64,000 nucleotides of DNA from Chloroflexota bacterium (GTDB taxonomy: Bacteria > Chloroflexota > UBA11872 > VXOZ01), in assembly GCA_963663275.1 (NCBI GenBank), contig OY760183.1, positions 1,472,001 to 1,536,000 of the forward strand, given 5' to 3'. Under the pieces are notes generated by a model, which worked only from the letters and a program-made list of their open reading frames with translations, did not search any database and was not told where the DNA came from. This document shows positions 2,860 to 49,328 of the stretch, one piece after another. The first letter of the stretch is position 1. Every line of letters starts with the position of its first letter. A program made the translations under genes and the position numbers.

Positions 2860-2961
2860 GTCATTCCGAACGGAGCGTAGCGAAGTGAGTAATCCAGGGC
2901 GCTGAGCTCAATGGGCTGCGTAGGGCACTCACCCTAGATTCCTCGCTGCGCTCGGAATGAC
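2860..2961. repeat. Family-E REP pair (GTCATTCCG...CGGAATGAC), free-standing
   Basis: gtcattccgaacggagcgtagcg...gattcctcgctgcgctcggaatgac; the same family is carried inside the MITEs at 5359, 33504 and 49183. Confidence 0.8.
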
Positions 2962-3145
2962 AGTTTGAAAACAAGCCGGATCGTGAAGACCGCGATTGAG
3001 AAGTGCCCCTCGGAGACCTGTCCGCAACGCTGGCAAGAGCGCGTGATTAGGTCGGGACGTTGAAGATTTCCCCTCACCCCGGGCCTCTCCCCAGGGAGAG
3101 GGAGGTTTTTCGCCTGCCGGCGCGGGTTGCGCCAGGGGTTCACTC

Positions 3146-5240: not shown

Positions 5241-5358
5241 CCGTACGCGCGGCGAGAGGCTGGTATAGAGTACGGGGGCAGGCTTGGCGGGTTACGCCTG
5301 ACTGGCTGGGCCTTGCTGTCTCCTTAACGGTTTCCCCTCACCCCGGCCCTCTCCCCAG

Positions 5359-5504
5359 CTGACAGAGGTAGGCATTCTACATCCGACTTCACGTGTCATT
5401 CCGAGCGGAGCGCAGCGGAGAGAGGAATCTAAGGCTTTCGCTGCAAAAACGTCGGTTCTAGATTCCTCGCTCCGCTCGGAATGACACGTGCCTACCCCTG
5501 TCAG
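5359..5504. mobile_element. MITE family 1 (CTGACAGGGGTA ends) inserted in a family-A REP, carrying a family-E REP pair
   Basis: TIRs ctgacagaggtaggca / tgcctacccctgtcag; 11-bp direct repeat cctctccccag at 5348-5358 and 5505-5515. Confidence 0.8.
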
Positions 5505-5608
5505 CCTCTCCCCAGGGAGAGGGAGCTTTGGGGCATGTCCCCGGGGTAAGAGTGCTGGGAGAGATCACTACAGGAGAGCGTTAGCGCCGGTGGTTGTCCT
5601 GCCGGGCG

Positions 5609-15327: not shown

Positions 15328-15624
15328 CCCCCTCACCCTAACCCTCTCCCAGAGGGAGAGGGGATAAGAGGCGCGTACGCGCTGGGCTTCATCTGCCCCC
15401 TCTCTCCCAGGAGACCTTTGCGTAACCTTGGGCGGCGCTCCTTCTACTCCCTCTCCCTGGGGAGAGGGCCGGGGTGGAGGGGGGAATCCTCGTCGGTTCC
15501 GCCTCATTTCGCAAGGCTTCAGTATGAGGCGCCGCATAATCTCCCCTCACCCTAACCCTCTCCCCAGGGAGAGGGAACTTTTCGCCTCTCAGCGAGGTTT
15601 CGCAAAGGTCTCCCCAGGGAGAGG
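15328..15624. repeat. Cluster of family-A REPs between convergent genes
   Basis: Several ccctcaccctaaccctctccc...gggagaggg copies in both orientations. Confidence 0.8.
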
Positions 15625-33419: not shown

Positions 33420-33503
33420 ATCGTTCCGGTAACGGTGTCGCCCGCGCGAAACGAGCCGGTACAGTGAAGTTATCCCCTCATCGTGGCACTCTCCCCAGGG
33501 AGG

Positions 33504-33664
33504 CTGACAGGGGTATGTAAGTGTCATTCCGAGCGGAGCGTCGAAAAGGGTTCGCGGAATCTAGAGTTGCTGACTTTGCAGTGTGGCGCCTTAGATTCCT
33601 CTCTCCGCTGCGCTCCGTTCGGAATGACACGTGAAGTCGATCATAGAATACATACCCCTGTAAG
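33504..33664. mobile_element. MITE family 1, second copy (inverted), in a degenerate family-A REP
   Basis: TIRs ctgacaggggtatgta / tacatacccctgtaag; 11-bp direct repeat ccccagggagg at 33493-33503 and 33665-33675. Confidence 0.8.
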
Positions 33665-33849
33665 CCCCAGGGAGGGTAAGTCTTTGCGCGCGCTGTGCCA
33701 CCTCGCCTGGAGCGAACTCACTTTCCCGCGTTGGACCGTAATTCTCGCGCTGCACAGTTCGCAGTGCAACCGGCGTTGGTATAATGGAATCTGCGTCTGA
33801 ACGACCGCTTACTGAAACGGAACCAGCAACACGACTAGGGACAAAAGGC

Positions 33850-41740: not shown

Positions 41741-41961
41741 CCCCTCACCCTAACCCTCTCCCCCCGTGGAGAGGGAACTGGAGGCGCCCTGCCGGAGGGC
41801 GCCCCCTCACCTTGGCCCTCTCCCGCCGTGGAGAGGGAACCGGAGGCGGCCCGGCGGAGGGCGCCCCCTCACCCTAACCCTCTCCCGCCGTGGAGAGGGA
41901 ACCGGAGGCGGCCCGGCGGAGGGCGCCCCCTCACCCTAACCCTCTCCCTCTGGGGAGAGGG
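41741..41961. repeat. Tandem array of 4 x 62-bp family-A REP units
   Basis: cccctcacc starts at 41741, 41803, 41865 and 41927. Confidence 0.85.
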
Positions 41962-45602: not shown

Positions 45603-45912
45603 CTCCGGTAGCGCAGGTTTGTAACCTGCGTCCGTTGCAAGTTTGCATGAGCGGGAAACCGGAGGCGGGGGACAAGCCCCCGCGCTACGTTACTGCTCAC
45701 ACGATGCGCCGCACTTCCGGTAGCGCAGGTTTGTAACCTGCGCCCGTTGCAAGTTTGCATGAGCGGGAAACCGGAGGCGGGGGACAAGCCCCCGCGCTAC
45801 GCGCCTGCTCGCTCAGTGTGCCTCAACTCCGGTAGCGCAGGTTTGCAACCTGCGCCCGTTGCAAGTTTGCATGAGCGGGAAACTGGAGGCGGGGGACAAG
45901 CCCCCGCGCTAC
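45603..45912. repeat. 3 x 112-bp composite units (family-C REP, linker, inverted family-B REP)
   Basis: GTAG at 45608, 45720 and 45832; CTAC ending at 45688, 45800 and 45912. Confidence 0.9.
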
Positions 45913-45974: not shown

Positions 45975-46970
45975 TCAGCCGTCGAGGCGCACCCGCTGTC
46001 CGCTCTCAGACGCCGCATAGATGCCCTGCACGATGGCCACCGCCCGTTTGCCGTCCTCGCCGGTGACGGACGGCTCCCGCTGTTCCAGGATGCTGGCCAC
46101 GAACTCGCCGTCCTCGCGTATGAATTGGCTGCGGTTTTGGGGGAACGTATGCGTTTCCCATTCCTCCGCGTCCGCCGTCGCCACTTTGAGATACCGCCAG
46201 GTGGCGATCTCCATGGCGCCGGCCGCGCCGGTCACCACTGCCCGGCAGCGGCTCAACACCGGGGGTGTGATCAAGGAGATTTCCATGGTCGCGGTGGCGC
46301 CGTTGGCGAACTCCAGGTGCGCCACGCCGTGGTCCTCGCCCTCGGTGCGCGCGCCGTAGTGGCCCACGGAGGCGGTGATCGCCGTCACCTCGGAACCGAG
46401 CCACCAGCGCAGGCGGTCGGCGCTGTGCACGCCGTTATCCATGAAGACGCCGCCGCCGGCCAGGGCGCGCACGCCGCGCCACCCCATGTCCTTATGGCGA
46501 TTGGGGGCTTGGACTGAGTCGTGGACGTGCAGCACGTCGCCGATTGCCCCTTCGCGCAGCAGTTCCCGCGCCCGCAGGTGTTCCAGGATGAAGCGGTGGG
46601 TGTGGCCGACCATCAGGTTCACGTTGGCCGCGCGGCAGGCGGCGATGACGGCGTCGCACTCGGCCACGCTAACGCCCAGCGGCTTTTCGCAGAGCACGTG
46701 CTTGCCGGCCCGGGCCGCGCCAATGGCCGCCTCCGCGTGCAGCGCGTGGGGCAGGCAGATGACGACGGCGTCCACCGCCGGGTCGTCCAGCACGGCGCGG
46801 TAGTCGGTGTGGACGTCCGGGACGCCGTGCGCGGCGGCGTACGTGCGGACGGCCGCTTCATTCACGTCCGCCGCCGCCGTAATGCGCGCCGCCGGCGCGG
46901 CGGCCAAGCCCCGCGCGTGGGACTGCGCAATGCCGCCGGTGCCGAGTATGCCGATGTTGACGGTCTTCAT
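45975..46970 (-). CDS. Gfo/Idh/MocA family oxidoreductase
   Basis: GILGTGGIA, KHVLCEKP, GGVFMDNGVH. Confidence 0.9.
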   Translation of the reverse strand: MKTVNIGILGTGGIAQSHARGLAAAPAARITAAADVNEAAVRTYAAAHGVPDVHTDYRAVLDDPAVDAVVICLPHALHAEAAIGAARAGKHVLCEKPLGVSVAECDAVIAACRAANVNLMVGHTHRFILEHLRARELLREGAIGDVLHVHDSVQAPNRHKDMGWRGVRALAGGGVFMDNGVHSADRLRWWLGSEVTAITASVGHYGARTEGEDHGVAHLEFANGATATMEISLITPPVLSRCRAVVTGAAGAMEIATWRYLKVATADAEEWETHTFPQNRSQFIREDGEFVASILEQREPSVTGEDGKRAVAIVQGIYAASESGQRVRLDG

Positions 46971-47078
46971 ACCCGCCGCTCCTTTCGCCTCAAGCCGCGG
47001 CCGCCGTGACGCCCGGTCACCGGCAGGGCAAATGAGGGCGCCCGCGACTTCCCGGTTGTTTTGTGCTAGTATACACGC

Positions 47079-49182: not shown

Positions 49183-49328
49183 CTGACAGGGGTATGTATT
49201 GCATAATCGAAATCATGAGTCATTCCGAACGGAGCGCAGCGGAGAGAGGAATCTAAGGCTTTCGCGCCTAGAGCGTCGGTTCTAGATTCCTCGCTCCGCT
49301 CGGAATGACACTTTCCTACCCCTGTCAG
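49183..49328. mobile_element. MITE family 1, third copy, in a family-A REP
   Basis: TIRs ctgacaggggta / tacccctgtcag; imperfect flanking repeat ccagggagat / ccggggagag; family-E pair inside. Confidence 0.7.

Follow-up and report, generated by a model that had tools for sequence, protein, structure and literature searches.

The IS4 family of insertion sequences (ISs) is defined by the signature Y-(2)-R-(3)-E-(6)-K (YREK) together with direct repeats of about 10 bp, and its studied members move by cut-and-paste, as stated in PMC2266710. The same article lists repeats of 10-12 bp for IS231 and a size range of 1200-1350 bp for IS10 (Table 1), describes IS231 ends that carry foreign or "passenger" DNA (MIC231), and mentions IS4-family-derived MITEs as already known. 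IS231A makes an 11-bp target duplication at GGGNNNNNCCC (PMC2577343, Table 1) and, as far as these sources go, is the closest documented case of a symmetric target combined with an 11-bp duplication. Extragenic palindromes are also sites of insertion: IS1397 and IS621 insert in or beside them (PMC3184786), and ISPpu9 is described as a REP-targeting IS (PMC12288879). REPINs, which consist of two inverted REP units with a spacer, are mobilised by RAYTs (PMC3337134). A literature search of titles and abstracts (ISfinder not covered) retrieved no MITE that has a free-living REP or REPIN doublet as its core and lands in other repeat families, and for the E motif described below it returned unrelated papers only. 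The repeat-cored MITE landing in other repeats is what is new here; the mechanism itself is not.

We analysed a window of 64 kb, which comprises bases 1,472,001-1,536,000 of a single-contig genome of 3,531,182 bp with 64.3% G+C (here G000). A sequence-only reading had described three copies of an IS4-like, non-autonomous element of 146-161 bp in this window, at 5359-5504, 33504-33664 and 49183-49328, each interrupting a family-A REP stem and enclosing a family-E REP pair. All three copies were confirmed. They begin with CTGACAG(G/A)GGTA and end with its reverse complement (3/3). IS10 and IS50 ends begin exactly CTGA. An inverted pair of E units (GTCATTCCGA...TCGGAATGAC) lies inside each copy, and, as the reading had also noted, the E pair occurs free at 2860-2961, as a 102-bp doublet with neither TIRs nor arm remnants. 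With up to two mismatches, the 12-mer CTGACAGGGGTA was found nine times in the window (2.98 expected, sd 1.63), a number reached by 0 of 100 shuffles, and six of these nine occurrences are the three inverted pairs of the MITE copies. The window gave no Rfam match at gathering scores.

Copy 1 (5359-5504, + strand, 146 bp) differs from the commonest 146-bp forms by one mismatch, which lies in its left TIR, and the identity of other MITE copies to it was 97-99%. The left TIR, CTGACAGAGGTAGGCA (5359-5374, +), accordingly has one mismatch to the consensus, and the same 16-mer bounds full-length IS copies; the right TIR occupies 5489-5504 (-). Between them lies the E doublet core (5395-5485, +), made of a 29-nt-type arm, a loop and a 19-nt-type arm. 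This core folds as a long hairpin, with -47 kcal/mol and a z of -10 for the whole element. The target duplication cctctccccag is found at 5348-5358 and again at 5505-5515, with 0 mismatches at 11 bp, and the interrupted family-A palindromic repeat spans 5330-5526 (restored site ...ccctcaccccggccctctccccagggagaggg...). Copy 2 (33504-33664, 161 bp) lies in the opposite orientation (-), has TATGT-type ends and an extra 14-bp module in one E arm, and is bordered by ccccagggagg at 33493-33503 and 33665-33675 (exact at 11 bp). The exact 11-bp duplications reported for two copies, differing between them, were thus borne out. Copy 3 (49183-49328, +, 146 bp) is older and diverged; its flanks differ by 7 mismatches at 11 bp, and only a decayed 8/10 match could be seen by eye. 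Copies 1 and 2 each interrupt an A-type hairpin, ccctctcc-ccag-ggagaggg, as had been claimed for all three copies; copy 3 has A-type sequence on both sides and no clean duplication.

To define elements genome-wide, forward and reverse TIR matches with up to two mismatches were paired at a distance of 120-260 bp. This yielded 121 two-ended elements in 3.53 Mb, so the pattern is far above chance. Together they make up 18,692 bp, or 0.53% of the genome. Their length ranges from 144 to 237 bp, with 71/121 at 146/147 bp and 28/121 at 157-161 bp, and the consensus of their ends is CTGACAGGGGTA(G/T)G(C/T)A. An identical layout of 36-nt arm, E doublet and 19-nt arm was found in 103/121 elements. The length classes arise from optional small hairpin modules (12-14 bp) in the E arms: 72 copies have the basic form, 14 (window copy 2 among them) carry 14 additional nt in one arm, 8 carry 12 additional nt in the opposite arm, and 5 carry both additions. 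Five copies have an E core turned round with respect to the arms, and two copies are of a long form (217 and 237 bp). As is characteristic of a bacterial MITE, the element is small, non-coding and multicopy, carries TIRs (15-16 nt, in 121 elements) and copy-specific target-site duplications (73/121), and shares its ends with an autonomous element, the latter in other genomes only.

Beyond the paired elements, 33 further TIR matches with up to one mismatch remained unpaired, and about 25 one-ended remnants were counted. Most of the 27 unpaired matches that we inspected were copies in which the other end was mutated or had lost its outer few bases. At three one-ended copies (genome positions 417978, 1648529 and 3152445) the outer 5-7 TIR bases are gone and the element abuts a family-A hairpin; such copies may record imprecise or abortive events. 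Five elements have, according to a loose flank classifier, mixed flanks of families A and B ((B,A) four times, (A,B) once). Elements with A on one flank, B on the other and no duplication lie at genome positions 46846-47011, 441859-442004, 938160-938331 and 1342728-1342873, as expected if recombination between copies rearranged the chromosome.

Direct duplications of 9-12 bp with up to one mismatch flank 73/121 elements (11 bp in 51, 10 bp in 14, 12 bp in 7 and 9 bp in 1), and 48 of the 73 are exact at 10-12 bp; the remaining 48/121 elements have no recognisable duplication. When left flanks were instead combined at random with the right flanks of other copies, 134/2000 such pairings reached the same score, which reflects the similar type of target of many copies. 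Among the 51 duplications of 11 bp, C occupies positions 1, 2 and 3 in 49, 41 and 37 cases, and G occupies positions 9, 10 and 11 in 38, 40 and 51 cases, giving the consensus CCC-N5-GGG. Since the element begins with C and its last base is G, an 11-bp duplication could not be told by appearance from one of 9 bp with an additional TIR base at either end. This interpretation was rejected, as the relatives' duplications agaggtcttcc, ggtggaccctg and cgtgtcatcca are not edged by C/G.

Once restored, the target sites prove to be the tops of hairpins. For 56/73 sites with a duplication, the midpoint of a palindrome whose stem has at least 7 bp is no more than 3.5 nt away. For unoccupied CCC-N5-GGG sites the corresponding values are 122/393 in non-coding DNA and 214/1149 overall, where the non-coding set comes from a rough gene mask of our own that covers 74% of the genome and the palindrome scores are rough as well. 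Relative to non-coding motif sites this is an excess of about 2.5-fold, which may be due to a degree of structural preference or simply to better survival of insertions in repeats. We used this palindrome-centre test in place of the loose flank classifier (8-mers, one mismatch), which puts 118/121 elements in repeats but also fires at 573/2000 random positions, so that the 118/121 figure is not evidence.

At least three repeat families provide the hairpins in or next to which the elements are located. In family A (ccctcaccc..ccctctcc-loop-ggagaggg) the duplication is 2-3.5 nt off the centre, on either side; in family B (ccttcccc-atcga-ggggaagg) it is centred; further insertion sites adjoin family C (gtagcgcgggggcttgtcccccgcc), a RAYT-type REP. 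The element follows a short symmetric motif that several repeat families happen to present. Insertion into REP hairpins, as proposed by the sequence-only reading, therefore stands, and its restriction to family A does not, the common denominator being an 11-mer resembling CCC-N5-GGG.

Empty and filled sites were compared in several ways. Within the genome, an uninterrupted family-B paralogue reads ...CCTTCCCCCTCGATGGGGAAGG..., and the filled counterpart reads ...ccttccccctcgatggg|MITE|ccctcgatggggaagg.... For window copy 1, the orthologous spacer in the nearest relative, G011, next to a flanking gene that is about 90% identical, gave no alignment. That spacer (L175:1300-1420) has no MITE and contains a short tandem repeat along with a free E doublet; given the abundance of E, the presence of the doublet there may be coincidence. 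In the public run that held the locus best (X6), which may be the source sample, both junctions were bridged with the MITE present. Another run (X7) contained a 122-letter contig (depth 3.9) leading from the left flank into an intact hairpin without the MITE, with only 22 letters past the joint and differing downstream letters, and is given no weight here. Regular arrays of family-A hairpins (periods of 62 and 107 bp) and of family C (period of 112 bp) are also present in the window, at 41755-41960, 15343-15574 and 45666-45906, and resemble BIME clusters.

Next, we scanned one genome per species (596 Gb) for the end sequence CTGACAGGGGTAKGYA and obtained at least 133 stretches with a match. 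By our estimate, many hundreds of matches to a 16-mer of this kind are expected by chance in 596 Gb, and single matches in unrelated phyla are presumably chance. Among the matches listed, most were in MAGs labelled Dehalococcoidia or Chloroflexota, many of them as inverted pairs, and at least 18 TIR pairs in other MAGs were 1315-1400 bp apart. All of these 18 listed IS-length pairs enclose one long ORF (314-426 aa), 12 have duplications of 10-12 bp, and none contains the E unit (0/18). Seventeen ORFs were aligned, the one of L068 (314 aa) being left out; 15 of the 16 compared with the L058 ORF were 59-90% identical to it, and the exception (L055, 26%) is probably a longest ORF in the wrong frame. 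The full-length IS that had been suggested as a check was thus found in other MAGs, though not in this genome.

The L058 IS (L058 2501-3832) is 1332 bp long, with the TIR CTGACAGGGGTAGGTAACGG and a 12-bp duplication. In ISs of this type the transposase is a single ORF of about 400 aa (400-425 aa). In L058 this ORF contains, without frameshift, the DDE_Tnp_1 domain (PF01609, 42.6 bits, cut-off 23), and YALRFWIELGFKAIK in it fits Y-2-R-3-E-6-K, as judged by eye in this one copy. The best NCBIfam model was NF033591, "IS4 family", at 105.1 bits, which is below the cut-off of 152. Repeats of 10-12 bp flank 12/18 of the IS copies among the matches listed and 72/121 MITEs, in agreement with the repeats of about 10 bp of the IS4 family and not with the roughly 5 bp of IS701, ISH3 and IS1634. 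CT ends and a length of 1.33 kb fit the IS10 subgroup, and the 10-12-bp repeats fit IS231 or IS4, as these are characterised in PMC2266710. Judged by these features, the cognate IS is a divergent IS4-family element that fits no single subgroup. The designation of the MITE as IS4-like and non-autonomous is upheld, since the same 16-nt ends bound ISs of about 1.33 kb with DDE_Tnp_1 and YREK elsewhere and none in this genome.

We consider it very probable that the MITE consists of IS4-family ends placed round a REPIN-like E doublet and is moved in trans by a DDE transposase into the tops of hairpins with CCC-N5-GGG. Its 16-nt ends are predicted to be the transposase-binding ends of an IS4-family IS, and its interior is a REPIN-like inverted doublet of an older E hairpin, not an IS remnant. 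A DDE transposase supplied in trans would bind both ends and excise the element, make target cuts spaced by 11 bp (10-12) and insert the element between them, and gap repair would then produce the 11-bp duplication. The preferred target would be a symmetric 11-mer, C-rich in one half and G-rich in the other, at the tops of G+C-rich palindromic repeats, so that copies pile up inside other repeats. Such a symmetric target would fit a transposase multimer that reads both halves. The nested system proposed from the sequence, in which a DDE transposase moves one REP family into another, is supported in its arrangement; the mobilisation itself, by cut-and-paste with the cognate transposase, is what we infer.

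In its 11-bp (10-12 bp) duplication, its symmetric target of G/C triplets with a 5-nt spacer and the foreign DNA between its IS ends, the MITE resembles IS231A and MIC231 of the Bacillus cereus group. Unlike IS231, it targets CCC-N5-GGG, the mirror of the GGG-N5-CCC of the IS231 subgroup, and its ends start with CTG (CTGACAGG) and not with 5'-CAT. The cognate transposase lies outside the IS231 cluster by name, the hosts are Chloroflexota, and the cargo is a non-coding hairpin doublet, in contrast to the genes of MIC231. With IS1397/ISKpn1, IS621 and ISPpu9 the MITE shares insertion in or adjoining extragenic palindromes; these are autonomous elements of the IS3 or IS110 family that differ in chemistry and in their duplications, whereas the MITE is non-autonomous, of IS4 type, and follows a short motif present in several repeat families. 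IS621 and ISPpu9 are not known to make a target duplication. The 5'-CT ends, the single ORF with YREK and the length of about 1.33 kb, within the range given for IS10, are shared by the cognate IS with the IS10 and IS50 subgroups (PMC2266710), but its duplication of 11 bp (10-12) differs from the 9 bp (8-9) of IS10/IS50. The MITE set amounts to countable natural data on IS4-family target choice, with more than 70 dated insertions in CCC-N5-GGG, the mirror of the IS231A site.

A search of this genome for the cognate transposase gave no homologue (best E value 0.06), and a complete IS bounded by the MITE ends was likewise not found. Of the TIR pairs, four are long (702-5312 bp); these lack a duplication and represent separate or one-ended MITEs. 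Exact TIR matches in the relatives G008-G011 and G014 also gave no pair at IS distance. Across 98 genomes of the class, the cognate transposase was present in 8/9 genomes of one other family and in four scattered genomes (g8, g3, g20 and G014, one each). Within the genus it was represented only by the decayed fragment in G014, which lies at a contig end and has no recognisable TIRs. Seven MITE copies are nevertheless identical, and thus have no visible driver in this genome, and 16 copies are at least 98% identical to the commonest sequence. The duplication is intact in 14 of these 16, compared with 16/41 copies below 80% identity. From identity and duplications together we infer that a recent burst was added to older copies; its driver would since have been lost or would lie on DNA outside this assembly. 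Either the copies are stranded by now, or their mobilisation came from a source that was lost or not assembled. A high-copy MITE in a closed genome without a matching transposase bears on how MITE bursts start and stop.

Near-identity could instead reflect old insertions homogenised by gene conversion, with no recent burst. The missing cognate transposase would fit this explanation, and the shuffling of E-arm modules among copies and the inverted E core in five of them indicate that sequence exchange or rearrangement within copies happens. We nevertheless regard it as unlikely, since the integrity of the duplications tracks identity (14/16 vs 16/41) and conversion of the element alone would not yield that.

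The genome holds five PF01609 transposase genes, one of an IS5-type element (322 aa) and four identical copies of an IS4-subgroup element (367 aa), and the TIRs of the MITE are absent from both of these resident IS types. The IS4-subgroup transposase matches NF033592 at 156.9 bits, and the ends of the IS are (C)AATGYTGTCGCATTAA. Each of its four copies (genome positions 381,6xx-382,85x and three other loci; L002-L005, L019-L025) splits the loop of a family-C REP and duplicates GGGG-N5-CCCC (12-13 bp). In the 98 class genomes, this IS was found outside G000 only as broken pieces in G011.

That this resident IS, and not a distant IS with matching ends, drives the MITE is very improbable. It too enters the tops of REP hairpins, with its duplication of 12-13 bp centred on the family-C loop (GGGG-CTTGT-CCCC), and the class search found it in no genomes other than G000 and, as fragments, G011, the two genomes with the most full-length MITE matches among those listed. 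However, (C)AATGYTGTCGCATTAA shares nothing with CTGACAGGGGTA, and the ends of another IS match the MITE perfectly over 16 nt. The resident and cognate transposases are only 28% identical over 161 residues, and the MITE is present without the resident IS4-subgroup IS in G008, G009, G010 and G014.

We then asked whether E is cargo or an integral part of the MITE, using an 18-mer of the E core with up to three mismatches as the genome-wide query. Among the 439 cores found, 272 are accompanied by an outer TIR at a set spacing (7 nt for 133 of them, 24 nt for 120), and 167 have none nearby. The TIR-less cores include 48 pairings, by our count at some 37 loci; these free doublets have unrelated flanks and a modal length of 102 bp. 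By eye, at least four of the loci show decayed MITE arms. When 40 relatives were searched with the E part alone (element positions 32/36-128), it was present in 16/16 other genomes of the genus and in 7/24 genomes of other families. Full-length MITE matches were found, among the best-ranking matches listed, in G008, G009, G010, G011 and G014. MITEs with the same TIRs and no E also occur elsewhere, with lengths of 182-184 bp and 204-214 bp. Because E occurs without TIRs throughout the genus and the IS carries the TIRs without E, the two are independent: E is an older, REPIN-like doublet, and the MITE a combination of IS ends with E. The possibility, raised beforehand, that the TIRs are a fixed part of the E repeat is thereby excluded.

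Like REPINs, the E core and the free E doublet consist of two inverted hairpin units with a spacer, about 100 bp in all. Unlike REPINs, E has no GTAG or CGTC tag, and family C, not E, lies on either side of the only Y1/RAYT gene in this genome (163 aa, NF047646 at 95.9 bits), so that E has no visible mobiliser of its own. At the RAYT locus (L002:2396-2887) the flanks at 2300-2370 and 2918-3062 carry GTAG-tagged family-C REPs, which are in direct orientation in one flank and inverted in the other. The REP nearest to the RAYT gene has been hit by one of the IS4-subgroup copies.

HUH transposition leaves no target duplication. The explanation that TIR and E are one indivisible repeat, spread by an HUH/RAYT tyrosine transposase or by recombination or gene conversion, with the duplications as a by-product of landing in palindromes, is largely refuted: the fixed TIR distance at 272/439 cores, the one RAYT in the genome and the five elements with mixed A/B flanks (e.g., at 46846 and 938160), by which inter-copy recombination does occur, are in its favour, but the flank duplications are direct, not inverted, and vary from copy to copy, the RAYT is flanked by family C, TIRs without E bound transposase-bearing ISs, and E without TIRs is found in every genome of the genus.

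Within the preferred reading, of E as cargo between IS4-family ends, doublets resembling E form the centres of MITEs that have these IS ends, with at least four architectures in several genera that differ in arm lengths (36/19, about 54/63, 37/80 and 47/95) and in loops. One such long form is represented in this genome by the copies of 217 and 237 bp. It is conceivable, though we hold it only tentatively, that the doublet is not an accidental passenger and that a REPIN-like repeat repeatedly or durably took over the ends of DDE transposons. In that case, the long hairpin might help by holding both ends together. There would be two layers of parasitism, with a non-autonomous repeat riding on the transposase of another element into a third repeat family, and the MITE could also burst in a genome without a transposase of its own.

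Repeat families build on each other in this small uncultured Chloroflexota genome. The IS4-type IS enters a RAYT-type REP, the MITE described here enters an IS5-type MITE and a REP family, and it carries a fourth repeat itself. For annotation, this explains several hundred "hairpin" repeats; nested repeats of this kind break short-read assemblies. The family-B hairpin is the inner part of a MITE of about 165 bp (L001:1263-1292 and 2500-2529, i.e., genome positions ~1,441,980-1,443,250; also ~170,750-171,060), and many copies of the present family are therefore MITE-in-MITE insertions. The ends of the ~165-bp MITE (GGAGACCTTTGCRTAAC) are those of the resident IS5-family IS, whose 322-aa transposase matches NF033581 at 297.6 bits, and the IS5 element, like its MITE, is itself located in family-A hairpins. 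Finally, a tandem array of about eight 22-bp units that correspond to the outer half of the E unit (...GGCTGCGCTCGGARTGACACRT...) lies at genome positions ~1,018,930-1,019,100, adjoining a free E doublet.
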